64,000 nt of DNA from a virus (lineage: Duplodnaviria; Heunggongvirae; Uroviricota; Caudoviricetes), in IMG/VR virus record IMGVR_UViG_2609459792_000007, one strand, 5' to 3'. Both the position numbers and the translations under genes were made by a program. The notes under the pieces were generated by a model. It did no database searches. It had not been told where the DNA came from and saw only the letters and a list, made by a program, of their open reading frames with translations. Of this stretch, positions 10,082-48,443 are shown one piece after another. How positions within the stretch are numbered: position 1 is the first letter of the stretch; each line of letters begins with the position of its first letter.

Positions 10082-10156
10082 GATGGTGTAGCTCAGCGGT
10101 AGAGCAGTTGGCTGTTAACCAACTGGTCGGTGGTTCGAATCCACCCACCATCGCCA
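10082..10156 (+). tRNA. tRNA-Asn (anticodon GTT)
   Basis: Hand-folded cloverleaf: acceptor gatggtg/caccatc, D-stem gctc/gagc, anticodon stem gttgg/ccaac with loop ctGTTaa, T-arm ggtgg-ttcgaat-ccacc, CCA end. Confidence 0.85.
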
Positions 10157-10161
10157 ATTTA

Positions 10162-10248
10162 GGGGAGTTAGTCCGTAGAGGTAGCGGGGTAGACTGTAAA
10201 TCTACTGTCATGGAGACTCGGGTGGTTCGACTCCATCACTCCCCACCA
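10162..10248 (+). tRNA. tRNA-Tyr (anticodon GTA), long variable arm
   Basis: Acceptor ggggagt/actcccc, anticodon stem gtaga/tctac with loop ctGTAaa, T-arm ggtgg-ttcgact-ccatc, CCA; D-arm not cleanly canonical. Confidence 0.6.
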
Positions 10249-10252
10249 AATT

Positions 10253-29978: not shown

Positions 29979-30314
29979 ATGAAGGCCATCCCATTTGCGC
30001 TGTTGTTCCTTTCTTCGATCGTTGTGGCCGACACCACTGTTTATCAGTGTGAAATGTCTGTAGCCGACGTTAAGAATGGCGCTCTTACCGACGTCATAAA
30101 AGCACCATATGGAGCGATGGTCGTAGACAGCGGCGACCAGTTCTATGTTGTGCGTGACGATCGAGTGTTGTCATCCCCATATCTCACAAATCGTAATGGC
30201 AAATTAACCGGCGTCGGAGAAGACCACTTCGTATACAACAAATACAAGGGCTTCTATGGCGTTCACGCTTCTCAGCAAAGCTACCTTTTCGATGACTGCA
30301 AGGAGGTTGGATAA
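29979..30314 (+). CDS. Secreted small protein (signal peptide)
   Basis: N-terminal MKAIPFALLFLSSIVVA signal-like segment; two Cys. Confidence 0.45.
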   Translation: MKAIPFALLFLSSIVVADTTVYQCEMSVADVKNGALTDVIKAPYGAMVVDSGDQFYVVRDDRVLSSPYLTNRNGKLTGVGEDHFVYNKYKGFYGVHASQQSYLFDDCKEVG

Positions 30315-35028: not shown

Positions 35029-36945
35029 ATGAAGTTTTTAAAGCTCCAGGTTGAGAATTTTATGGCTATCGCCAGCGCGGAGGTCGAGTTAGATCAGCGT
35101 GGTTTAGTGCTTATTCAGGGTGTTAATAGTGATGATAGTTCCGCATCAAGTAATGGCTCTGGAAAGTCAACTCTAATGAATAGCCTGATGTGGTGTCTTT
35201 ATGGCGAAACAGCTCATGGTGTGAAGGGTGACGATGTGTTGTCTACCGACCATGAAAAGAACTGTCGTGTTGCAGTAACCATCGAGGATGAAGGCAAGAG
35301 ATACGCAATCATTCGTCACCGTAAACACAAAGAGTTCAAAAATCGTCTTATCGTTCGTGGTGAAGATGGCGATATGACGAAAGGCAAAGATGCGCTGACG
35401 CAGGAGTTCGTCGAGCGTCTGATCGGTGCATCTAAAGAGGTTTTCATGGCTTCCATCTATGCGAGCCAAGAAGCTATGCCAGATTTACCTGGAATGTCCG
35501 ACAAAAACCTCAAAACCATCGTAGAAGAAGCCGCTGGCGTTGACAGACTGACACGCGCCTACGCTATTGCTCGTGAGCGAGCTAATGCAGCTGCCGCACG
35601 TATGGATGTGGTTAAAACCAAATTGGAGTCGACAATCTCGACCATTGAGGCAACACAGTCAGAAATTGAGTCAGCGAAAGCCTCCTCTGAATCATGGGAG
35701 CAAGAGCGTTCTAAACGTTATGACGATGCCCTGGCTGGGCTGGCCAGTGCCGAAGTTGAGTTAACGGAAGTTGAACTTGAGATCCGCACTCTTCCCGAAC
35801 AGATACGTGATACCGAGAAGGCAATCGAAAGTGAGCGCAAAAAGTTAGCCTCAAAAGAAGAACATGACGCCAAGTTGCTCAAAGTTCGTGGTGCGATAAC
35901 TGATATTCGGGCAAGCATCAAAGCTACAGAAAATAGTCAGGCTGATGCAATGAACCGCGCGCGTAATTTTAAGACCAAAGCAGAAGAGGTTGGTACTAAA
36001 GTGGGATCACCATGCCCTACTTGTGGCAAAGCCTACTGCGAAGAAGATCTATCAACGGTGAAGGAGAGTTTCATTGAACAAGCACGTCAGGAAATTGGTC
36101 AGGCGAAGACACTTGCAGAGGCAATGGCTAAACACAAAACGAATCTTGAGAAAGCGTTAAGCATTGAGTCTGCCCTTGTTAAAACGACACCTGATGTAAC
36201 GGCTATCATTGCCCGGATTGAAGAGCTTACGAAACAACTCTCATCTTTGCGTCATCGTGAGAAGGAGGTTGTTGCTATTGAGTCTCTTGTGACTCGTGCT
36301 CGTACTGAGGTCGATCGTATATCAAAAGAGATTAATCCGTTTATTGCTCTTATCGCCAGACACGAAGATAACTTGGTATCCAGTAAGTCTACCTTCAAGT
36401 CCTTAAAAGATGAGTTGAAGGCTATTCAGGAACAAACGTTGCTATTGGAAAAAGCTCGTCAGGTCTACTCTCCTGCCGGGGTGCGTTCTCATATTTTGAC
36501 GTCTGTTACGCCTTTCCTGAATACACGCACTGCCGAGTATCTCAATACGTTGTCTGACGGGAATATTACTGCTGAGTGGTCGACGATGGATGTCACTAAA
36601 AAAGGTGAGTATCGCGACAAATTCAACATTAGTGTGCAGAAGAAAGGTTCAAGTAAGTCGTTCCAGACCCTCTCTGGTGGTGAGAAGCGGAAGGTTCGCA
36701 TTGCGTGTTCTTTGGCATTGCAGGATCTGGTTAGTAACCGGGCGAGTAAAAACATCGATTTGTTTATCGGCGACGAAATTGACGATGCACTCGATACAGC
36801 CGGTCTTGAACGCCTCATGGGTATTCTGGAGTCCAAAGCTCGCGAGCGAGGTACTGTGCTGATTATCTCCCATAAAGAGATGAAGTCATGGTTCCGGGAA
36901 ACTATTACGCTGGAAGTTAAAGAGGGGCGCAGCTATGTCGTTTAA
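35029..36945 (+). CDS. SbcC/Rad50-like ATPase
   Basis: Walker A GSGKST, long coiled coil with CPTCGK hook-like CxxC, signature LSGGEKRKV, D-loop LFIGDEIDDALD. Confidence 0.8.
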   Translation: MKFLKLQVENFMAIASAEVELDQRGLVLIQGVNSDDSSASSNGSGKSTLMNSLMWCLYGETAHGVKGDDVLSTDHEKNCRVAVTIEDEGKRYAIIRHRKHKEFKNRLIVRGEDGDMTKGKDALTQEFVERLIGASKEVFMASIYASQEAMPDLPGMSDKNLKTIVEEAAGVDRLTRAYAIARERANAAAARMDVVKTKLESTISTIEATQSEIESAKASSESWEQERSKRYDDALAGLASAEVELTEVELEIRTLPEQIRDTEKAIESERKKLASKEEHDAKLLKVRGAITDIRASIKATENSQADAMNRARNFKTKAEEVGTKVGSPCPTCGKAYCEEDLSTVKESFIEQARQEIGQAKTLAEAMAKHKTNLEKALSIESALVKTTPDVTAIIARIEELTKQLSSLRHREKEVVAIESLVTRARTEVDRISKEINPFIALIARHEDNLVSSKSTFKSLKDELKAIQEQTLLLEKARQVYSPAGVRSHILTSVTPFLNTRTAEYLNTLSDGNITAEWSTMDVTKKGEYRDKFNISVQKKGSSKSFQTLSGGEKRKVRIACSLALQDLVSNRASKNIDLFIGDEIDDALDTAGLERLMGILESKARERGTVLIISHKEMKSWFRETITLEVKEGRSYVV

Positions 36946-37678
36946 ATTAAGCCGCTCGCAGTTTTTGCAGGTATTTGCAGTGATGCAGTCGATAAAACTG
37001 ATCAATGGGCATACTTCCAATGGTGCGGCTCCACGTATTCTGTGGGGCAGCAACAATATTGACGGAGTACAATTCGCCGCGTTGCTTGGTCTAATATCCG
37101 AGACGCCATTGATGCAAAGTTTGAAATCACTACCACCTGGATGTATTGCGCCGATCCTGATTAATCCTTTTGTTGAGGGGGGATATCTTCCCAACGTCGG
37201 GCCTGGGTTTATTGCATCCCATGAAACTGAAGATCTTAACATTAATAGCGAAGGGTTCTTTGGGGGAATGGGTGCGCATCACTGTATGGCTTTCACGAAC
37301 CTTATTCGACTTGCCAATAAGCGGGTGGATAGTTTGGCATCGCCAGGTGATGCTTTTACTGGTTTCCTTATCCAAAGGAGGGATAAAAAGTACAGTGCGG
37401 ACAAACTACAGTTTGTTGGTAAGTATGGAGAAATGGTAGAAATCGAACTTCAGCTCCCTCATGTTTTAGCAAACGATAGTGCAGACAGTCGGAGGCTATT
37501 GGGCATCATGCGTCATTTCATAGCAAGTGGTGTTAAACATGCCGCAGATAAACGTGTCACGCAGGAAAATGAGTATTCAGACTTTGCAAACTATCCCCAA
37601 CCAACGTTGCAAACGGCAATAGTAGCCAATTCGTTGGAGGCGAGATTATTGGAAAACCCTATATGGGGAACATGGTAA
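36935..37678 (+). CDS. Hypothetical protein
   Basis: 247-aa ORF overlapping SbcC-like stop; no recognised motif. Confidence 0.4.
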   Translation: MSFKLSRSQFLQVFAVMQSIKLINGHTSNGAAPRILWGSNNIDGVQFAALLGLISETPLMQSLKSLPPGCIAPILINPFVEGGYLPNVGPGFIASHETEDLNINSEGFFGGMGAHHCMAFTNLIRLANKRVDSLASPGDAFTGFLIQRRDKKYSADKLQFVGKYGEMVEIELQLPHVLANDSADSRRLLGIMRHFIASGVKHAADKRVTQENEYSDFANYPQPTLQTAIVANSLEARLLENPIWGTW

Positions 37679-37687
37679 GGAGACTAT

Positions 37688-38257
37688 ATGAGTAAAAAAA
37701 TCAGCGTAGTTGGTGTTGATCCCTCAATGAGCAACTTTGGGCTTGCTGTGGGCACTTTAGACCTTGAGACGGACGAACTTGAGATTCACGGCCTTACTCT
37801 TGTTGAGACTAAAGCGGGGAGTAACAAAAAGACCGTTCGTGTGAACAGTGACGATCTGCGCCGCGCCAGTGAAATATGGCGTGTTGCGAAGCCAATCATT
37901 GATAAGGCAAATATGGTTTTTTGTGAGCTACCGGTTGGGAGCCAAAACTCTCGTTCGCAGACGTCTTACGGTATTTGTATCGGTGTACTTGCGTGTGTGG
38001 ATAAGCCATTGATCCAGGTTACTCCAAACGAAATCAAGCATTTTGTCGGCAATAAACTTACTACATCGAAAGAAGAGATTATCCAGTGGGCTACGAAAAA
38101 ACACCCTAAAGCACCGTGGCTGCGTCGTAAGCAATCTGGACAGGATGTTCTCGTGAACAAAAACGAACATTTGGCTGATGCGGTGGCTGCCATCCATACC
38201 GGTATGCAAACAGATCAGTTCCGCCAGGTGCGCGATGTTCTTAAGTCTCTCATTTGA
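37688..38257 (+). CDS. RuvC-like Holliday junction resolvase (RNase H fold)
   Basis: N-terminal VVGVDPSMSNFGLAV resembles the RuvC first catalytic motif; 189 aa. Confidence 0.5.
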   Translation: MSKKISVVGVDPSMSNFGLAVGTLDLETDELEIHGLTLVETKAGSNKKTVRVNSDDLRRASEIWRVAKPIIDKANMVFCELPVGSQNSRSQTSYGICIGVLACVDKPLIQVTPNEIKHFVGNKLTTSKEEIIQWATKKHPKAPWLRRKQSGQDVLVNKNEHLADAVAAIHTGMQTDQFRQVRDVLKSLI

Positions 38258-38291
38258 TTTCATTGATAGGTAAGTGCTTATCTATTAACAT

Positions 38292-38320
38292 GGGCCACTA
38301 TATTTAGTGGCCCTCTTTAT
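38292..38320 (+). terminator. Terminator after resolvase gene
   Basis: gggccacta-tattt-agtggccc hairpin then T-rich. Confidence 0.55.
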
Positions 38321-38330
38321 TTGGTGATAC

Positions 38331-40646
38331 ATGATAAGCATCGTAAAACGTAACGGCCAAACAGAGCCGTTATCCGAAGAAAAATACAACCGCGTCGTAA
38401 TGTATGGCGTAGAAGGCATTCGTGGTGTAAGCGCATCCGCTGTAGCAATGGGAGCTGCGGCCAGCATTTTTGATGGGATTACCACCAGCCAGTTGCATGA
38501 GGCTTTGGTTAAATCTGCCGCTGATTTGATCTCACCAGAAGCACCAAATTACTCACAGGTGGCTGCCCGCCTGAACATTTTTAAAATCCGCAAAGATGCC
38601 TTCGGTCGTTACGACTATCCGAACTTCTACCAACACATTGTCAAGAACGTTAACAAGGGCGTTTATGACAAGGATTTGCTGACACATTATTCGTTTGAAG
38701 AGATCGAAGAACTCGGCAATTACATTAAGCCGAAACGTGACGATCTTTTTGGCTATGCAGCTACGGTGCAGTTGCAAAGCAAATACCTCGTTCAAAACCG
38801 TGTTACTGGTGAGATTCATGAGGGGCCGCAACATATCTATATGCTGGTAGGCATGTGTCTGTTCCAGAATTGGGAAGACGACTGCGCTGGCAAAACACGT
38901 ATGGAGATGGTCAAAGGTTTCTATGACGTTACAAGTACGTTCAAACTGTCTCTGCCCACACCAATCATGGCCGGCGTCCGTACTCCAACCCGTCAGTTCT
39001 CCAGTTGTGTGCTGATTGAGTCTGGCGATAGTCTGAAAGGGATTAGTGCAGCTTCAGCCGCAATTATCGACTACGTTTCACGTCGTGCTGGAATTGGTAT
39101 TGGTTTTGGCCGTATCCGTGCGCTGGGCAGCGAGATCCGCAATGGTGAAGCCACCCATACTGGAGTTATTCCATTCCTGAAGCATTTCCAGACGGCTGTT
39201 AAATCTTGTTCGCAAGGTGGTGTTCGTGGTGGCGCAGCAACAGCGTTTTACCCGATCTGGCATCTTGAAGTTGAAAGTCTGCTGGTGGTGAAAAATAACC
39301 GTGGTATTGATGAAAACCGCGTTCGCCATCTTGATTACGGCGTCATGAGTAACCGTCTAATGTACCGTCGACTCGTCAGAAGCGAGAACATCACTCTGTT
39401 CAGCCCGCATGATGTGCCTGATATGTACGAAGCCTTCTTCACAGACCAGGAGCTGTTTGAAAAGCTGTACCATAAATACGAAGCCGATGATTCAATTCGC
39501 AAGAAGTCAGTACCTGCCATTGAGCTGTTCTCATCTCTGATGCAGGAACGAGCGTCCACGGGCCGAATTTATATTGCGAACGTCGATCATATTAACGAGC
39601 ATGGCGCTTTCATTCCTGCTCTTGCACCTGTTCGCCAGTCAAACCTGTGCATGGAGATCACTCTACCCACTCGTCCACTGGCATTTACCGACGACCCGAA
39701 CGGTGAGATCGCGCTATGCACTTTATCCGCTTTTAACCTCGGAGCCATCCGTTCACTGGAGTCTCTTAAAGAGGTGGCGTTCTATGCCGTTGCTGCACTG
39801 GATTCGTTACTGGATTATCAAGACTATCCGATGGAGGCAGCCGAAGTGCCTGCCAAAGCTCGTCGTAGCTTGGGAATTGGTGTAACCAACTTTGCTTATT
39901 ACCTGGCAAAGAATGGCGTTCGTTATTCTGATACCGCTGGCAATAAACTGGTGCATGAAACGTTCGAAGCTATCCAGTATTACCTTCTTGATGCCAGCTG
40001 CCGACTTGCTGAAGCAAAAGGTGAGTGTGACTGGTTTGAGCAGACCAAGTACGCAATTGGTCAGTTGCCGATCGACCATTACCGTTCTTCATTAGACGAA
40101 AGTGGCGAAACCAACTTTGAGTTAAAGATGCCGTGGGAAGAACTGCGTGAACGTATTGCAAAATACGGCCTTCGCAACTCCACACTGACGGCACAAATGC
40201 CATGCGAGACTTCCAGCCAGATCACTAATTCCACCAACGGCATCGAACCGCCTCGTGGACCGGTGTCGGTGAAATCTTCTAAGGACGGCATCGTTAAGAT
40301 GGTCGTGCCTGAGTTTGAAAAACTGAAGGAACAGTATGAATACCTGTGGGATATGCCGGACAACCGCGGCTATCTGACAAAGGTGGCGATCATCCAGAAG
40401 TTCTTTGACCAGGCTATTTCAGCCAATACCAACTATGACCCTTCTCGCTTTGAAGGCGATAAAGTCCCAATGATGACGCTACTGTCAGATTTGCTTCTCG
40501 CCTACAAGATGGGAGTTAAAACGCTTTACTACCACAACACCAGAGATGGGGCAGGAAAGCGTGATGACGACGAACCGCAGAATCCACTGACGCAAGCTGT
40601 AGCCGTCGAGCCAGAAGATGAGTGCGACGGAGCCTGCAAAATCTGA
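38331..40646 (+). CDS. nrdA: Ribonucleotide reductase class Ia large subunit
   Basis: 771 aa; N-terminal ATP-cone-like region; followed by nrdB. Confidence 0.85.
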   Translation: MISIVKRNGQTEPLSEEKYNRVVMYGVEGIRGVSASAVAMGAAASIFDGITTSQLHEALVKSAADLISPEAPNYSQVAARLNIFKIRKDAFGRYDYPNFYQHIVKNVNKGVYDKDLLTHYSFEEIEELGNYIKPKRDDLFGYAATVQLQSKYLVQNRVTGEIHEGPQHIYMLVGMCLFQNWEDDCAGKTRMEMVKGFYDVTSTFKLSLPTPIMAGVRTPTRQFSSCVLIESGDSLKGISAASAAIIDYVSRRAGIGIGFGRIRALGSEIRNGEATHTGVIPFLKHFQTAVKSCSQGGVRGGAATAFYPIWHLEVESLLVVKNNRGIDENRVRHLDYGVMSNRLMYRRLVRSENITLFSPHDVPDMYEAFFTDQELFEKLYHKYEADDSIRKKSVPAIELFSSLMQERASTGRIYIANVDHINEHGAFIPALAPVRQSNLCMEITLPTRPLAFTDDPNGEIALCTLSAFNLGAIRSLESLKEVAFYAVAALDSLLDYQDYPMEAAEVPAKARRSLGIGVTNFAYYLAKNGVRYSDTAGNKLVHETFEAIQYYLLDASCRLAEAKGECDWFEQTKYAIGQLPIDHYRSSLDESGETNFELKMPWEELRERIAKYGLRNSTLTAQMPCETSSQITNSTNGIEPPRGPVSVKSSKDGIVKMVVPEFEKLKEQYEYLWDMPDNRGYLTKVAIIQKFFDQAISANTNYDPSRFEGDKVPMMTLLSDLLLAYKMGVKTLYYHNTRDGAGKRDDDEPQNPLTQAVAVEPEDECDGACKI

Positions 40647-40752
40647 CATATGGTGGGGGATATCCCCACCTTCTCTTTGATTTGTAAGCCTTGTTTAAAC
40701 ATATAAGATAACAACTTGTTTAAACGCACCAAAAAAGAAAAAGGAAAAACAC

Positions 40753-41895
40753 ATGTCATATTCAACGTTCCGTTTGGGTGCTAATGATGCAACCAAAGAG
40801 CCTATGTTCCTCGGACAATCTGTCAACGTGGCACGTTACGATCAGCAAAAATACCGTGATTTTGAAAAGTTGATTGAACGTCAATTGTCTTTCTTCTGGC
40901 GGCCGGAAGAAGTTGATATTTCGAGCGATCGTATCGACTTCAACACGAAGCTGCGGGACCACGAACGTCACATTTTTCTGAGCAATCTCCGTTATCAAAC
41001 GTTACTCGATTCAGTTCAGGGACGTAGCCCAAATGCAACGCTGCTGCCGCTTATCTCTATTCCTGAACTGGAAACGTGGGTTGAAACATGGTCTTTCTCT
41101 GAGACTATCCATAGCCGCAGCTACACCCACATTATTCGTGGCATGGTGGACGATCCGAGCATTGTTTTTGACGGTATTGTTACGGATGAAGAAATCATCA
41201 ACCGAGCGATCAGTATCTCTGCTGAATATGACAGGCTTTATGGGATGACCTGCGAGCGCCAGTCGTTAGGTGAGAAGGAGTTTGAACGTCTGTACGTAAA
41301 TGAATATGGCTGGGAGCCATACCCTTTGCACCGTCAGCTTTTCCGCACGTTGGTGTCCATTAATGCGCTTGAGGCGATCCGTTTCTATGTAAGTTTTGCA
41401 TGTACGTTTGCCTTTGGCGAACGGAAGTTGCTTGAGGGTAACACCAAAATTATGCGCTTTATTGCCCGTGATGAAGCTCTGCATTGCGAAGGAACTGAAC
41501 GCATGATCCGCTTCATGCGTACCGGTCGCGAAGGTTTATTGTGGAAAGAGATTGCTGCTGATGAAGAAAACGTCATTTACGACACCATGAAATCAGTCGC
41601 CGAACAAGAAATGAACTGGGCAGACTATCTCTTCAAAGACGGTTCGATGATTGGTTTAAACGCGGATATTCTCAAAACCTATGTAAAATACCGCACCAAT
41701 CTGGCTATGAATCGTCTTGGCCTGAAGGCTTTATTTCCAGAGGTTACCACCGATCCGCTGGTCTGGATGAACAAGTGGTTGTTAACCGACACACTGCAAA
41801 TTGCACCACAAGAGGCAGAGCAAAGCACATATCTGGTAGGTCAGATCGATTCTACCGTGGATAAGGCTTCTCTAAGCCAGTTTGCTGACCTGTAA
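40753..41895 (+). CDS. nrdB: Ribonucleotide reductase class Ia small subunit
   Basis: 380 aa; di-iron ligand-like ExxH patterns; conserved cacATG start context. Confidence 0.85.
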
Positions 41896-41972
41896 ACCGA
41901 TACAAAGCATTATGTGGCCTGGCAACGCTGGGCCACAATGGATCACAAGAATTAAGAAGGAACAAAACTAGC

Positions 41973-42842
41973 ATGAACTTTACCAAACTGACTGACCACC
42001 TGAAACTTGCCACCGATCGACTCATTGGATTTAAGCCAGAACCATATGAGTTGCATGAAGGTCATGGTGTAGCTACTGAAAGTATTTACAAGATGGTCGA
42101 TCAGTTTCATGAACTCTTCCAGCATCCGAGACGCGTTATGCCGACACCAGAGCTGCTTCGTCTCCGTGCAAGCCTGATTCATGAAGAAGCTGTAGTGGAA
42201 GGTATTCCAGCCGCAATGAATGGGGATATTGAGCAACTGCTGGATGCAATGGCCGACTTTTTATACGTTGGTGTTGGTACGATGGTCGCCATCAAAGGTG
42301 GTATTTCTACCGGCATGACCTATTACACGCAGGAACAGAGCATTGATCGCTTTATGCAGACAATTTTTGTGCCTGGTAACACTGTTTTCGATGATATGGC
42401 AATGCCATTTCAGGAAGCTCGTGAGGCGTCATGTATGCTCGAAGAGCTGGCAGATAAACTTGAGAACAAGACTGTTAAGGATTCTGAGCTGATTCAGGAA
42501 CTGCGCCGTGTCATGAACAAAATCTATGTGGCGTGCATGATGACCTATCGACTGGCTGATTTCCTCGGTATCAATGTAGTCGAGCTGGTTGGCGAAATTC
42601 ATCGGTCTAACATGACAAAATTATGGCCTGCTGATGTTGAGGAACGTCGCCAGGCTGTGGCCAACTGCAAATACGACTCTTCAGATCTGGGATTCCGCCA
42701 TGCTGATGGCACCGATAAGATGATCGGTTTTCGAATTTCCGATGGAAAGATTCTGAAGTCTCCAACCTATAGTGATGTCGATTTATCCTCCTTTGTTGAG
42801 CAAGCTAAAGCCTCGGCAATGTACGGAATGATCAAAAAATAA
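41973..42842 (+). CDS. Putative MazG-like all-alpha NTP pyrophosphohydrolase
   Basis: EExxE...D pattern in LIHEEAVVEGIPAAMNGDIEQLLDAMAD; assignment tentative. Confidence 0.35.
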   Translation: MNFTKLTDHLKLATDRLIGFKPEPYELHEGHGVATESIYKMVDQFHELFQHPRRVMPTPELLRLRASLIHEEAVVEGIPAAMNGDIEQLLDAMADFLYVGVGTMVAIKGGISTGMTYYTQEQSIDRFMQTIFVPGNTVFDDMAMPFQEAREASCMLEELADKLENKTVKDSELIQELRRVMNKIYVACMMTYRLADFLGINVVELVGEIHRSNMTKLWPADVEERRQAVANCKYDSSDLGFRHADGTDKMIGFRISDGKILKSPTYSDVDLSSFVEQAKASAMYGMIKK

Positions 42843-42910
42843 TTGTAGGTAGTTATCTATCTGTGTATATTGCGTTGGCGCGTTAAATTTCTGAAACAAC
42901 TATTCGTTTT

Positions 42911-42937
42911 TGGTGGCCTATGGCCACCATTTTTTTA
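42911..42937 (+). terminator. Terminator after MazG-like gene
   Basis: tggtggcc-tat-ggccacca hairpin plus T7. Confidence 0.7.
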
Positions 42938-43013
42938 TCTGTCTGGTCTTGTTCTCTCAATAAATGTAAACTCACGCAATGAATAAGTGGTTACTTATCT
43001 TTGTGAGGTTTTT

Positions 43014-44117
43014 GTGTCACTCCTTTTGAATCGTGAGCATACGAACGGTCAGGTAACAAACGCATCGTATGCAAAAGTTATTGAGACGGTGCTTAAAAGC
43101 GGCGTGCAGGCTGATGATCGCACAGGCACTGGTACTTTAAGCACCTGCTACGTTCCCTCTTACTACATGCTTACTGGTGGGACTGTGCCGCTTATTTCTG
43201 GAAAGGCGGTAAATCTTAAGCCACTGCTTGTCGAACTTGAGTGGTATCTGAAAGGCACGGGCAACATCCAATTTCTCAAGGATAACGGCGTTAAGATTTG
43301 GGATGCATGGGCCGATGAGAATGGCGATTTGGGGCCGGTTTACGGTAAGCAGTGGCGTCGATGGGAAGATACCCGCATCGTGAGCCATAGTGAATATCTG
43401 AGCAAGATCGATACTTTCCGTGAACGCGGGTACAAAGTCGAGGGATACCTGGGTATCAGTGAAGATCGCGTAGTGCTGTCCCGTGAAATCGATCAGCTAC
43501 AGCGTATTGTCGATACACTGCGCACGAACCCTACCGATCGTCGCATCATGCTTAACGCATGGAACGTAGGCGAGCTTGAGGATATGAAACTGCCACCTTG
43601 CCACTTTGTCTTCTCTTTGTGGAGTCGTGAGCTTGATTTTGAAACCCGTTTAACGATGGCAACTGACATTGGTCTTCAACACAGTCGCCTCGGTTATGAG
43701 TCTATCTACACCAAGATGCTATACGATCTGGAGATGGACGGCAGTGTTACTGAAACTGAACTGGATGAACTTGGAATCCCCAAACGCATCCTCAACTCCT
43801 GCCTCGTACAGCGTAGCGTAGACACTTTTGTTGGTATGCCATTCAATATTGCTGGCTATGGCATTCTCACTCATTTTCTCGCGAAGATTACGGGTCACAT
43901 GGCCGGTGCATTTGTGCATTTTGGCTTTGACGTGCATTTATACAATAACCACATGGAAAGTGTGTGTGAGCTAATGAAACGACAGGCTCCAGAGCATTCA
44001 GATCCGGTCGTTATTTTCCCTCATGAATGGTCTGAGCTGGATGATTTCAAATGGGACGATATTCTGATTCTTGGCTATGACCCTCTACCGTGGATCAAGG
44101 TTCCAGTGGCGGTGTGA
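43014..44117 (+). CDS. thyA: Thymidylate synthase (ThyA family) with internal insertion
   Basis: WADENGDLGPVYGKQWR, active-site PPCH, RSVD...PFNIAGY with Asn retained; ~50-aa insertion between FSLW and the RSVD block; GTG start 43014 after RBS gagg. Confidence 0.8.
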   Translation: MSLLLNREHTNGQVTNASYAKVIETVLKSGVQADDRTGTGTLSTCYVPSYYMLTGGTVPLISGKAVNLKPLLVELEWYLKGTGNIQFLKDNGVKIWDAWADENGDLGPVYGKQWRRWEDTRIVSHSEYLSKIDTFRERGYKVEGYLGISEDRVVLSREIDQLQRIVDTLRTNPTDRRIMLNAWNVGELEDMKLPPCHFVFSLWSRELDFETRLTMATDIGLQHSRLGYESIYTKMLYDLEMDGSVTETELDELGIPKRILNSCLVQRSVDTFVGMPFNIAGYGILTHFLAKITGHMAGAFVHFGFDVHLYNNHMESVCELMKRQAPEHSDPVVIFPHEWSELDDFKWDDILILGYDPLPWIKVPVAV

Positions 44118-44118
44118 T

Positions 44119-44532
44119 ATGGCAAGAGGTATGTATGTCTTATGCGAAATTGAAGGTGTGCTGGCAAATACAAGCCATCGTAAATCTGTATCTGACGCGG
44201 ATGCAGGCCAGCTCATTGCCGGTGATGAACTCATTTTCCCCACCAGCCGTATGTTGCGTGGTTTTGCTCGCTCAGGGGCTGAAGTGGTGCTTATCAGTAG
44301 CCGCTCTGAAACTCTTGAAGCGCCAACTAAACGATGGCTGAAAGATTTTGGCGTTGATTATGACTGGCTTCATCTCGTACCGAATGGCACCAGTTATGAG
44401 AAGCATATTAAGCGCACATTAGCGGAGCATAAAGGCGATCTGCTTATCGCTGCGCTGGTGCACGATCCTCGACTCCGTGCCGCTTTAGCCGACTCTCACC
44501 ATCGACCGGTCATCTATGAGGTGAGCAAATGA
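44119..44532 (+). CDS. Hypothetical protein
   Basis: ORF between thyA and DHFR; ATG 44119 directly after thyA stop. Confidence 0.4.
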   Translation: MARGMYVLCEIEGVLANTSHRKSVSDADAGQLIAGDELIFPTSRMLRGFARSGAEVVLISSRSETLEAPTKRWLKDFGVDYDWLHLVPNGTSYEKHIKRTLAEHKGDLLIAALVHDPRLRAALADSHHRPVIYEVSK

Positions 44533-45005
44533 AGATGATCGCTGCTGTTGGCCGTAACTATGAGATCGGCATAGCGAATGAACTCCCCTGGCGTTGTTCT
44601 ACCGATCTGAAGCTATTTAAGAGACTCACCAAAAACGCCACTGTCGTTATGGGGCGTAAAACGATGGAAAGTCTCAAACGCCCTCTTCCAGAGCGTCATA
44701 ACCTCGTTTTGACGCGCTCTCATGGCTTTGTACCAAATGGATTCTACCCTGCTGGTGTGGATGATGTGTTGCGATTACCAGAGCCTGTGTGGGTGATTGG
44801 CGGGGAACAAATTTACTCGCTATTCATGCCGCATGTTGAAGAGATTTGGCTCTCCCACATCGGCGTTGATGTGCCAAACGCTGATGCATTCTTCCCGGCA
44901 AGCATGATGCGTAACTTAGGCTTTGTGCCTGTTGAAACAGCTTATACCCAACGAGCCAGCGAGGAAGAGCCTGGCTTTTCGCAGATCGTATACAGAAGGT
45001 CGTAA
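44529..45005 (+). CDS. Dihydrofolate reductase
   Basis: N-terminal MIAAVGRNYEIGIANELPW...LTKNATVVMGRKT..SL.RPLPERHNLVLTRS matches DHFR signature. Confidence 0.85.
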   Translation: MKMIAAVGRNYEIGIANELPWRCSTDLKLFKRLTKNATVVMGRKTMESLKRPLPERHNLVLTRSHGFVPNGFYPAGVDDVLRLPEPVWVIGGEQIYSLFMPHVEEIWLSHIGVDVPNADAFFPASMMRNLGFVPVETAYTQRASEEEPGFSQIVYRRS

Positions 45006-45649
45006 TGGATTACCGGATTGGGATCACTGGTGCTCAGGGCAGTGGGAAAACAACCCTGGCTAAATATATCGACAAACATTACGGAATCCCTTACGTGGAT
45101 GCTGGTGTCGGAAGTTTGATGAGCCGCCTCGGTGTTCGAGTAGGTGAGTCTATGACTCTATATGAGCGGCTTCAGATTCAAATGGAAATAGCAAAGCATA
45201 TAGAGCTACTTACGCGTGGTGTTGAAGGCTTTGTTATCGATCGCACACCTGCTGATGTTATGGCCTACACGTTGGATTTGGTCGGCCATACCAATGAAGA
45301 TCGGTGTATTGAGTTAGCCCTCGATATCGAAAAGTTTTGCCACAAAACTGCTATTTCAAACTTTAACGCCATTGCTGGCTTACGCCCGGGAGTCGCTCTC
45401 TCCGAGCGAGATTACTTGCGTTCACAACGAGCATCATTAGACCGTCTGTATGTCGCTCGTATTGATGCGTTGATGTGCGGGGAACTGACAAAAATTCACC
45501 TACATCCGCAAAGGGGAGATCTGCAAACCTTCGTCGTTTCCAACCGATATCGCACAGTTGAAGCAAGAGCCAGATCAGTAATGAGAATGCTAGATAACGC
45601 AGTAGAAAAGATAGAAAACCGCTTCTGTGGCCGAGTGACCGTTCATTAG
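45005..45649 (+). CDS. P-loop nucleotide/nucleoside kinase-like protein
   Basis: Walker A GITGAQGSGKTT at N-terminus; 214 aa; sits in nucleotide-metabolism cluster. Confidence 0.5.
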   Translation: MDYRIGITGAQGSGKTTLAKYIDKHYGIPYVDAGVGSLMSRLGVRVGESMTLYERLQIQMEIAKHIELLTRGVEGFVIDRTPADVMAYTLDLVGHTNEDRCIELALDIEKFCHKTAISNFNAIAGLRPGVALSERDYLRSQRASLDRLYVARIDALMCGELTKIHLHPQRGDLQTFVVSNRYRTVEARARSVMRMLDNAVEKIENRFCGRVTVH

Positions 45650-45710
45650 AAATTGTTCGCCTCTTCGACATTGCAACAATAAAACTCTCAAAATGGGTTA
45701 AGGATAAAAA

Positions 45711-46130
45711 ATGTTTAGTGAAATGTTGCTTGAAGATGAACTGGATCGGAAAACAACAGAGGCTTTGATTCGTGTAGCGGACGAACATTCCCGGTCGCTT
45801 ATGACCGATCGAGAGGCTCGTCTGGCTATTCGTGCCATATTCGAAACTGCGCAGGGGCTTGTTGGCGCACAAGTAGGTGAAGCCATTAACATCGCCATGT
45901 CTCAGTTCAGTGAAGACAGTAAAAAGCCTCTGTTTCCTATGCATTTGATGCTGGCTGGTGGCACGGTGCTTTATATCTCTGTTTGTCTGGATAGCAACCA
46001 AATCAATATTCTCAACACTGCGTCAGGTAAGTGGAAAGATCCGATTGTCTGTGAAACCAGTGAAGAAACTTTGAAAAAAGCGGCTCAATTTGTACGTAGC
46101 GCACTACTTAAGGGCGCTAAGAAGTTGTAA
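45711..46130 (+). CDS. Hypothetical protein
   Basis: 139-aa ORF. Confidence 0.4.
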   Translation: MFSEMLLEDELDRKTTEALIRVADEHSRSLMTDREARLAIRAIFETAQGLVGAQVGEAINIAMSQFSEDSKKPLFPMHLMLAGGTVLYISVCLDSNQINILNTASGKWKDPIVCETSEETLKKAAQFVRSALLKGAKKL

Positions 46131-46139
46131 GGAGTTCTG

Positions 46140-46697
46140 ATGACAACGATTGTTGCAGGCATCGATATCGAGTCTACGGGACTGGATTTCCTTGCTGGTC
46201 ATAAAATTATTGAAATCGCAATTACCCGCTATGAACTGGAGACACAGAGACATATTGATAGTCTGGAGATGCGTTTTAACCCTCGCAGAAACATAGATCC
46301 GAAAGCTCAAGCCGTTCATGGCATTTCATTGGAACAGCTCGCAGCTGAACCTTTGTTGTCAAATCATGCCAGCGAAATTGGCGCTTATATGGGGGCATGT
46401 AGTGCGTGGATTGCTCATAACGGTGAAGCGTTTGATATACCATTTATTCGACACGAGTTTTCAGGGTATGGAGTAAGACTGCCAGATGTTCCTGTTATAG
46501 ATACTATGTTATCGGGATTGTGGGCCACAGAAGACGGTAAACGTCCCCGCCTTGAAGAGTTGGCCTTCTCTCTTGGCTTTATATACGATCATGCCAAAGC
46601 ACATAGCGCCTTATATGACACAAACTTAATGATGCAATGCTTCTTTAAGGCACGTAATAAGTACGGATTTTTTAAATTACCCTCTGAAATTGTGTAA
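46140..46697 (+). CDS. DnaQ-like DEDDh 3'-5' exonuclease
   Basis: Exo I GIDIESTG, Exo II AHNGEAFDIPF, Exo III HSALYDT. Confidence 0.8.
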   Translation: MTTIVAGIDIESTGLDFLAGHKIIEIAITRYELETQRHIDSLEMRFNPRRNIDPKAQAVHGISLEQLAAEPLLSNHASEIGAYMGACSAWIAHNGEAFDIPFIRHEFSGYGVRLPDVPVIDTMLSGLWATEDGKRPRLEELAFSLGFIYDHAKAHSALYDTNLMMQCFFKARNKYGFFKLPSEIV

Positions 46698-47849: not shown

Positions 47850-48443
47850 ATGATTGCAGCCGAAAAAATCAAACAGCGAAAGCGCGACAACTCTCTTCGT
47901 GACCTCTGGAGAACACCTGATTGGCTGTTTTCTGCCATTCAACGTTATCTTGGAGTGACATTTGATGTTGACGTTGCCTGCAACAAGGACAATGCAAAGC
48001 TGCCTAATTTCATAGGCGTTGAGCGTGATGCTTTGAAATCTGAATGGGGACAGCCAGGTACAATTGCCTTCCTCAATCCACCCTACTCCAAAATCTCCCC
48101 CTGGATTGATGCGGCTATACGTGAGCAGGCTCGCGGAGTTACAACAGTGATGCTAATTCCTCAATCCCTAGATACAAAGTGGTATGAGCGTGCAACAGAG
48201 TGTGCGAATGAGACGATTATTCTGTCTGGTGGCCGCGTAGCGTTTGTCGAGCCTGACGTCAATCTGGGTCAGGTAGAAGTAAACATCAACCCAGGTGGCA
48301 GTATGCTCGTTGTTTTTCGAGGATTCTGTCAGGACGCTGGGCACTCTATAAGCAAGATCCCTTTGGACGTCATGAAAAGTCTGGGAGGGTATGATCCTGC
48401 GAATGTGATCAGGAAAAAAAGACCATCAAAGAAGGCTGCTTAG
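47850..48443 (+). CDS. DNA N6-adenine methyltransferase (phage Dam-like)
   Basis: Catalytic motif NPPYS; 197 aa. Confidence 0.7.
   Translation: MIAAEKIKQRKRDNSLRDLWRTPDWLFSAIQRYLGVTFDVDVACNKDNAKLPNFIGVERDALKSEWGQPGTIAFLNPPYSKISPWIDAAIREQARGVTTVMLIPQSLDTKWYERATECANETIILSGGRVAFVEPDVNLGQVEVNINPGGSMLVVFRGFCQDAGHSISKIPLDVMKSLGGYDPANVIRKKRPSKKAA

Follow-up and report, generated by a model that had tools for sequence, protein, structure and literature searches.

We examined a nucleotide-metabolism island that lies between positions 38,331 and 45,649 of IMG/VR virus record IMGVR_UViG_2609459792_000007, a Caudoviricetes sequence of 64,000 nucleotides that we refer to as the window. Genes for the ribonucleotide reductase subunits NrdA and NrdB, a MazG-like pyrophosphohydrolase, the thymidylate synthase ThyA, a small HAD-like open reading frame (ORF), a dihydrofolate reductase (DHFR) and a P-loop kinase follow one another on the plus strand (Table 1). 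This is the co-linear order described in an earlier reading of the same DNA (the original prediction), and both the ORF list and Pfam agree with it, coordinates included. That prediction had asked whether ThyA, which carries an insertion, serves normal thymidylate (dTMP) synthesis or base modification. In nucleotide sequence, the 7.3-kb island shares 99.0% identity with Escherichia phage Cyrano, the phage-plasmid pLF82 of E. coli LF82; with further E. coli phage-plasmids it shares 98–99%, and with Salmonella phage SSU5 76.7%. In PLSDB, 684 plasmid records match it, from hosts that include Klebsiella, Escherichia, Enterobacter and Salmonella; nearly all of these plasmids are non-mobilizable and about 110 kb in length. 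From the identity to Cyrano and SSU5 together with the plasmid matches, we conclude that the window is an SSU5-type phage-plasmid. A passage in PMC12928451 cites work noting rnhA, dhfR, thyA and nrdAB on Salmonella Typhi plasmid pHCM2 as early as 2002, and the nrdA label is carried by the same gene in Cyrano, SSU5 and the plasmid records. The island is thus the already known, long-annotated DNA-precursor gene cluster of SSU5-type phage-plasmids, for the supply of dTMP and deoxynucleoside triphosphates (dNTPs). We consider it very probable that this conserved deoxynucleotide-supply module makes ordinary dTMP.

Table 1. Genes, ThyA insertions and hairpins of the island, in window coordinates
Feature	Position	Strand	Evidence or remark
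GC-rich hairpin before nrdA	38292-38313		intergenic gap
NrdA, class Ia ribonucleotide reductase large subunit, 771 aa, with ATP-cone	38331..40646	+	Pfam Ribonuc_red_lgC 3e-131, Ribonuc_red_lgN, ATP-cone
GC-rich hairpin just 3′ of nrdA, terminator-like or attenuator-like	40652..40670	+	consensus scan, 8 pairs, 6/8 GC
NrdB, ribonucleotide reductase small subunit, 380 aa	40753..41895	+	Pfam Ribonuc_red_sm 4.5e-46
MazG/HisE-type all-alpha nucleoside triphosphate (NTP) pyrophosphohydrolase, 289 aa	41973..42842	+	Pfam PRA-PH (PF01503) 1.3e-08, 35.6 bits vs cutoff 21.3
Hairpin TGGTGGCC-TAT-GGCCACCA then seven T, intrinsic-terminator-like	42911..42936	+	between MazG-like gene and thyA
ThyA, classical folate-dependent thymidylate synthase, 367 aa	43014..44117	+	Pfam PF00303 2.3e-79, TIGR03284
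ThyA insertion 1, about 34 aa extra	43368..43484	+	residues ~119-157 of 367-aa protein
ThyA insertion 2, about 51 aa extra	43626..43796	+	residues ~205-261 of 367-aa protein
Small HAD/PNKP-phosphatase-like protein, 137 aa	44119..44532 (ORF from 44071)	+	Pfam HAD_PNKP 8.9e-05; phrog_5387 8e-90
Dihydrofolate reductase, DfrA51 allele, 158 aa	44529..45005	+	Pfam DHFR_1 1.6e-34; NCBIfam NF047324
P-loop small-molecule kinase, 214 aa	45005..45649	+	Pfam AAA_28 (PF13521) 4.2e-09; phrog_2107 'thymidylate kinase' 1.4e-10

The thyA ORF reaches upstream to a GTG at 42987 (ORF 42987–44117). The true start is probably the GTG at 43014, because a GAGG lies 6 nt upstream of it (43004–43007) and because all full-length SSU5-group orthologues have the length of 367 aa that this start gives. 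The protein scores 266.7 bits against PF00303 (cutoff 24.3) and 223.2 bits against the NCBI thymidylate synthase equivalog TIGR03284 (cutoff 108.35); it falls below the narrower NF0024xx models, as expected from its two insertions. We aligned ThyA in MAFFT with reference proteins and its 120 best homologues. The comparators, taken from annotated phage genomes, were T4 Td, T4 gp42, SPO1 gp29, a ViI-like Kuttervirus enzyme and an M6-like Yuavirus enzyme. ThyA is 43.6% identical to E. coli thymidylate synthase (EcTS) over 264 aligned residues, and at all but one of the 24 tabulated sites it has the EcTS residue; the exception, at the final residue, is a conservative Ile/Val exchange. In E. coli numbering it keeps R21, K48, E58, W80, W83, V93, Y94, R126, R127, L143, C146, H147, Q165, R166, S167, D169, N177, H207 and Y209, together with the C-terminal tail IKVPVAV (pattern IKxPVA(V/I)). 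Among 57 homologues, Cys146-His147, Glu58, Tyr94, the Arg21/126′/127′/166 phosphate clamp and Asp169 are invariant or nearly so. The PCH cysteine and the asparagine of PFNIAGY to which the original prediction had drawn attention are indeed both present, the former within PPCH and the latter as the uracil-specificity residue Asn177 (residue 278 of the 367-aa protein). The features that close off the active site so that hydride transfer can occur (PMC6400193) are there as well, namely IWDAWAD with Trp80 and Trp83, KLPPCH with Leu143, and the tail itself.

ThyA matches E. coli ThyA pairwise in three blocks and contains additional residues at two internal positions. Insertion 1 (+34 aa) follows the QWRxW helix, between E. 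coli residues 101 and 109, and insertion 2 (+51 aa) sits at the tip of the central beta-hairpin, at E. coli residues 153–159. With the start at 43014, there is also an N-terminal extension of about 14 aa. The original prediction had reported one insertion of about 50 residues that bacterial ThyA does not have; that insertion is real and is absent from the 264-aa bacterial enzyme, but the shorter one had been overlooked. An AlphaFold2 (AF2) model of ThyA, built from a 57-sequence alignment, reached a mean predicted local distance difference test (pLDDT) score of 95.3. In this model both insertions are predicted with high confidence, the first as a strand, two short helices and a hairpin and the second as three helices. 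When the model was searched against the PDB with Foldseek, E. coli thymidylate synthase ranked first (E 1e-31), with a TM-score of 0.94 normalised to the target and 0.68 normalised to the query. These two values indicate that the core fold is intact and that the insertions are covered by no solved structure.

Next to ThyA in the pathway stands the DHFR, which scores 338.2 bits against the NF047324 (trim_DfrA51) model (cutoff 322), is 91% identical to the DfrA51 of SSU5, and keeps all of the mutationally tested residues A6, I13, D26 and S48. DfrA51 was named in 2025, and the SSU5 allele raises the minimum inhibitory concentration of trimethoprim in E. coli to 256–512 mg/L, compared with 2–4 mg/L (PMC12217456). 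Because it gives trimethoprim resistance in E. coli, DfrA51 must reduce dihydrofolate, i.e., it must be a working DHFR. The DHFR of the window, judged by its sequence, is a trimethoprim-insensitive DfrA51 allele. Its gene is an integral, coupled member of the nucleotide operon rather than a cassette acquired through a mobile element. DfrA51 and its cognate thymidylate synthase share a conserved operon, on elements represented by hundreds of clinical plasmids of Klebsiella, Escherichia, Enterobacter and Salmonella.

Upstream of thyA, the candidate MazG-like pyrophosphatase of the original prediction is borne out by the PRA-PH match above cutoff and by phrog_671 'nucleotide pyrophosphohydrolase' (1e-47), and the acidic metal-binding helices are visible as EExxxE and DxxxD stretches (HEEAVVE and DAMAD). 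The protein weakly matches D. radiodurans DR2231, which we take to be a dUTP-preferring enzyme, with an E-value of about 1e-3 in two segments. It is about twice as long as DR2231, with the matching segments about 80 residues apart and a C-terminal extension besides; the MazG/PRA-PH orthologue of a related Photobacterium element is shorter (242 aa vs 289 aa). No dUTPase is annotated in SSU5. As the element has no annotated trimeric dUTPase, the MazG-like protein probably converts dUTP to deoxyuridine monophosphate (dUMP), and we infer that it acts as a dUTPase-like supplier of dUMP.

The small ORF after thyA, which the original prediction left as unknown, is present as described and is not wholly unknown, being HAD/PNKP-phosphatase-like. 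Its HAD_PNKP score of 23.1 bits lies below the 27.6 cutoff, and it matches the Pnkp1 phosphatase domain at 1.9e-05. HAD phosphatases have a motif I of the form DxDxT with a nucleophilic Asp, and the small ORF does not have it. In both the window and SSU5 the motif reads C-E-I-E-G-V, i.e., ExEGV for DxDGT, with both catalytic Asp residues changed to Glu and the Thr to Val. The same motif is C-D-L-D-G-T in Pnkp1 and C-D-L-D-G-G in the syntenic Photobacterium orthologue (L014, 9076–9516). The enterobacterial copies, although conserved, may therefore have lost activity or taken on another role.

The last gene encodes a kinase whose AF2 model (pLDDT 87.5) has deoxynucleoside and thymidylate kinases as its nearest folds, with TM-scores of about 0.55–0.65. 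A profile search against PDB sequences gave little match past the P-loop, and it was the fold search that placed the protein. In a search of 5.8 billion proteins, the family was confined to SSU5-like elements of about 100–110 kb. The modelled fold suggests a deoxynucleoside or deoxynucleotide kinase. A defence-system reading was rejected, as PADLOC returned weak P-loop matches for the kinase only and none for the other proteins tested. The SSU5 RefSeq record labels the kinase 'AAA family ATPase'.

Taken together, the genes outline a route to ordinary dTMP. By homology, NrdAB reduce ribonucleoside diphosphates. The MazG-like enzyme would probably hydrolyse dUTP to dUMP. ThyA would then convert dUMP and 5,10-methylene-tetrahydrofolate to dTMP and dihydrofolate, a step strongly supported by both sequence and fold. 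The DfrA51-type DHFR would regenerate tetrahydrofolate, as its 91%-identical SSU5 orthologue has been shown experimentally to be able to do, and the fold of the P-loop kinase suggests that it probably phosphorylates a deoxynucleoside or deoxynucleoside monophosphate towards the triphosphate. The ThyA insertions and the N-terminal extension would be add-ons to an intact synthase core. Several points weigh against this account. The substrates assigned to the MazG-like enzyme and the kinase are putative, and the small HAD-like ORF may encode no phosphatase at all because Glu replaces both catalytic Asp residues. The literature searched contained no enzyme assay, complementation or nucleoside analysis for this ThyA or for the virion DNA of Cyrano or SSU5. 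The signatures used for dUMP hydroxymethylases come from four aligned sequences and a structural paper on the T4 deoxycytidylate (dCMP) hydroxymethylase, not from mutational work on a dUMP enzyme, and 85 conserved extra ThyA residues are without an explained function.

The last of these points bears on the explanation that survives best beside our own, in which the chemistry is ordinary but the insertions are a functional add-on. They would dock ThyA to the DHFR, NrdAB, kinase or replisome of the element, as in a T4-like dNTP-synthetase complex, or make it insensitive to a host regulator or inhibitor. We regard this as possible, if on balance doubtful. The confident folding of both insertions in the AF2 model speaks for it, as does their conservation: relative to SSU5, the ratio of nonsynonymous to synonymous polymorphism (pN/pS) is 0.044 for insertion 1 and 0.137 for insertion 2, with 0.073 for the ThyA core. 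Such low ratios mark the insertions as selected protein segments, and purifying selection is as strong in insertion 1 as in the core. Enterobacterial phage-plasmids and the jumbo phages of Erwinia and Pseudomonas have kept the insertions in the same positions and, in part, with similar sequence. Insertions are common among phage and metagenomic ThyA homologues, occurring in dozens of them; among the 120 best homologues their lengths vary from 0 to 74 residues, a range expected of a peripheral module. Homologues with longer insertions tend to sit on large viral-looking contigs (contexts were inspected for a few). Among predicted viral structures in BFVD, the best matches are long phage thymidylate synthases including those of 201phi2-1 and Yoloswag (query-normalised TM-scores of 0.79–0.87), whereas the maximum for solved structures is 0.70. 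We also considered whether ThyA owes its extra length to an intron or a structured RNA and rejected this, as Rfam (E-value mode) found no match in 38000–46200 and the insertions keep the reading frame and evolve under purifying selection.

On the other side, no partner is directly evidenced. Two jumbo-phage-type contexts lack a Pfam-recognisable DHFR beside the insertion-bearing enzyme, so DHFR-specific docking is not general. DHFR adjacency itself may or may not be a general trait of insertion-bearing synthases: in these two contexts, the locus of EarlPhillipIV and a jumbo-type contig from a metagenome, the neighbouring ORFs of about 160 aa match no Pfam family. The position of insertion 1 is an insertion site in eukaryotic thymidylate synthases too, such as the human enzyme, which fits a merely tolerant loop. 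The original prediction had raised the possibility that the insertion is a loop shared by ordinary phage Td proteins. By alignment and BFVD it is shared with jumbo-phage synthases, but not with T4 Td, whose insertions lie elsewhere. No literature on the role of the insertions was found, and the published descriptions of pHCM2, SSU5 and Cyrano that we read mention neither the insertions nor the degenerate HAD motif. Most likely, the insertions are a structural or interaction decoration that leaves the chemistry unchanged. A bolder form of the idea, which we offer tentatively and hold to be unlikely as it stands, is that the insertions, perhaps with the N-terminal extension, make up a lineage-specific surface module with its own function, common to SSU5-type phage-plasmids and jumbo phages; it might, for example, dock the enzyme into a complex for dNTP synthesis or replication that the virus encodes, or shield it from a host regulator or inhibitor, with the dTMP chemistry again unchanged. 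Thymidylate synthase is among the most conserved enzymes known, and for this reason a widespread, uncharacterised clade of insertion-bearing phage thymidylate synthases could merit a structural and biochemical look.

The alternative of most consequence is that ThyA is a dUMP hydroxymethylase and that the pyrophosphatase and kinase serve a pathway of the SPO1, M6 or ViI kind, leading to 5-hydroxymethyl-uracil or to thymidine hypermodification. Two observations would suit it. ThyA is about 100 residues longer than bacterial ThyA, and known dUMP hydroxymethylases are also long (346–383 aa); in addition, the linked NTP pyrophosphatase, phosphatase-like ORF and P-loop kinase belong to enzyme classes that are also represented in the SPO1-type pathway. 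However, the dUMP hydroxymethylases owe their extra length to a helical extension at the C-terminus, in place of the tail, whereas in ThyA the extra residues are paired internal insertions and the tail is intact, so length alone is no likeness. The ternary complex of T4 gp42 shows what distinguishes a hydroxymethylase: Asp at the position three before the catalytic cysteine (C-3; Leu143 in EcTS), Ser94 in place of Val93, Val in place of the solvent-excluding Trp83, and loss of the C-terminal tail, which in synthases seals the cofactor for hydride transfer (PMC6400193). Dihydrofolate is a product of thymidylate synthases and not of hydroxymethylases (PMC6400193). In our alignment, each of the four hydroxymethylases carries Asp at C-3, follows the Cys with Thr or Asn and has Met or Asn at 165; none of them combines Trp80 with Trp83, and none ends in the synthase tail. 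For the three dUMP hydroxymethylases the set is Asp at C-3, Asn after the Cys, Asn at 165, a gap at Trp80 and an aromatic residue in place of Trp83; ThyA has Leu, His147, Gln165 and Trp80/Trp83, all of synthase type. A coupled DHFR with a functional orthologue lies downstream, in a place where a hydroxymethylase would yield no dihydrofolate for it to reduce.

Gene content points the same way. We used tblastn with M6 gp51–55, T4 beta-glucosyltransferase, SPO1 dCMP deaminase, SPO1 gp21.8 and gp22.1, and ViI-like neighbours as queries against the window and the whole SSU5 genome. No homologue of a 5-hydroxymethyl-uracil DNA kinase (5-HMUDK), an aGPT-Pplase, a pyridoxal-phosphate or radical-SAM enzyme, a glucosyltransferase, a dTTPase, a dTMPase or a dCMP deaminase was found in either target, and in SSU5 nothing fell below E 0.05. 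The sole window match below that value, SPO1 gp22.1 at E 0.004 (30068–30235, minus strand), is spurious: it is antisense to a plus-strand ORF and has no ORF of its own of at least 80 aa. The kinase was also set aside as a 5-HMUDK. It matches the M6 gp54 5-HMUDK at a tblastn E-value of 0.41, and the hhalign alignment covers 24 columns, limited to the P-loop, as is its alignment to E. coli Tmk. A Dam-family N6-adenine DNA methyltransferase (PF05869, 2.5e-38) is encoded at 47850–48443, a short way downstream of the island, and the SSU5 record has two annotated DNA methyltransferases. DNA methylation is the only DNA-modification capacity that we detected. In the literature, we found no published evidence of DNA modification or of thyA complementation in SSU5, Cyrano or pHCM2.

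The alignment with ThyA and with the dCMP and dUMP hydroxymethylases that the original prediction had proposed thus gives the synthase residue at every discriminating position. Its preference for a true dihydrofolate-producing synthase is upheld, as ThyA has all of the synthase signatures and none of the hydroxymethylase ones, passes TIGR03284 and is linked to a DfrA51-type DHFR. It had also held a hydroxymethyl-pyrimidine pathway to be worth excluding, and at the level of residue alignment, fold and gene content that exclusion holds. We consider a dUMP hydroxymethylase very unlikely; as far as sequence, fold and gene content allow, the hydroxymethyl-pyrimidine alternative is excluded. That ThyA would make ordinary thymidylate and not a modified base is strongly supported by every sequence test applied.

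It is less credible still that the element passively carries the long ThyA as a paralogue that has decayed or lost its activity. In favour of this, the host already has a thyA, and the element is kept as a plasmid prophage with its lytic-cycle genes mostly silent. Nonetheless, all catalytic residues are intact, the pN/pS of the core is low, and the gene and its surrounding order are kept down to 50% protein identity in the Photobacterium element. We give almost no credence to an enzyme acting on dCMP, either as a T4 gp42-like hydroxymethylase or as a dCMP methyltransferase: a dihydrofolate-making dCMP methylase would, from pathway chemistry, fit the DHFR linkage equally well, but the retained Asn177 argues against it, T4 gp42 having in its place Asp179 as the determinant of cytosine specificity (PMC6400193), and where the dCMP hydroxymethylase has Asp179, Asp145, Ser94 and no tail, ThyA has Asn, Leu, Val and an intact tail, with the entire dUMP-binding set as in EcTS (the comparison with an XP12-type dCMP methylase being indirect).

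The ATG of the small HAD-like ORF lies 1 nt past the thyA stop codon, and the start codons of the DHFR and the kinase each overlap the preceding stop codon; thyA, the HAD-like ORF, the DHFR and the kinase are translationally coupled. These four genes probably constitute a sub-operon, as a terminator-like hairpin also lies upstream of them. Among the three intergenic hairpins (38292–38313, 40652–40670 and 42911–42936), only the last has a clean T-run. The hairpin just 3′ of nrdA is a pattern match only, and such sites are no commoner in the region than in shuffled sequence. These hairpins may be attenuators or RNA-stability elements that subdivide the operon. In the Photobacterium element, whose ThyA is 50% identical, the same NrdA-NrdB-PRA-PH-ThyA-HAD_PNKP-DHFR-AAA_28 order is found, flanked by an SbcC-like gene upstream of NrdA and by an RNase_T-type exonuclease after the AAA_28 kinase. 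The module is old and has travelled as one block.

In the window, the genes upstream of nrdA encode an SbcC/Rad50-like ATPase (35029–36945), an unannotated 247-aa protein without a Pfam match (36935–37678) and a 189-aa protein that is RNase H-like according to the SSU5 annotation and has no Pfam match (37688–38257). The same upstream neighbours precede the island in the Photobacterium element. Farther away, four tRNA genes (Asn-GTT, Tyr-GTA, Thr-TGT and Ser-TGA) cluster at 10082–10639, and the SSU5 RefSeq record has one annotated tRNA only (Asn) in the matching region. In the region of the Cyrano record OV696614 that corresponds to 42987–45649, the classical ThyA is labelled 'ThyX Thymidylate synthase', and an 'ABC transporter ATP-binding protein' under the match is apparently the P-loop kinase; both labels look wrong.

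Finally, we compared the island with known systems. The nrdAB-thyA-dhfR region of pHCM2, SSU5 and Cyrano (pLF82) belongs to the same type of element and has the same genes in the same order, with no substantive difference. The island is accordingly an ordinary dTMP/dNTP supply module of a very common enterobacterial phage-plasmid family and not a hidden base-modification system. E. coli ThyA (PDB 1TYS, 2TSC) has the same fold and the same catalytic and cofactor-binding residues, tail included, as the ThyA of the window, and differs in having neither the 34-aa and 51-aa insertions nor the N-terminal extension of about 14 aa. The dUMP hydroxymethylases (SPO1 gp29, M6 gp58-type and ViI-type) and T4 gp42 share with ThyA the Cys nucleophile, Glu58, Arg166-Ser167, Asp169 and His207-Tyr209, but they are only 18–22% identical to it, lack the tail, and differ at C-3 (Asp), next to the Cys (Asn or Thr follows it) and at 165 (Asn or Met). 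The T4 frd-td-nrdA-nrdB cluster also groups a DHFR, a thymidylate synthase and a class Ia ribonucleotide reductase, and T4 Td keeps the same catalytic residues; it differs in that its insertions fall within the small domain and close to the C-terminus and that there is an intron, and T4 carries the gp42 dCMP hydroxymethylase and glucosyltransferases, which the window does not. The closest counterparts to the unusual form of ThyA are jumbo-phage synthases (Erwinia phage EarlPhillipIV gp110, Pseudomonas phage 201phi2-1 and Erwinia phage Yoloswag), which have insertions at the same two positions. Those of EarlPhillipIV gp110, a protein otherwise very close to E. coli ThyA, resemble the insertions of the window in sequence as well (SRELDFETR vs TRELTHEER and RERGYK vs TAAGYE). 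The jumbo-phage enzymes differ in their overall identity of about 38% and in size, with insertions of 34 and 44 residues in gp110 and a total of 457 aa in the 201phi2-1 protein, and the EarlPhillipIV locus, unlike the window, has no adjacent Pfam-recognisable DHFR.

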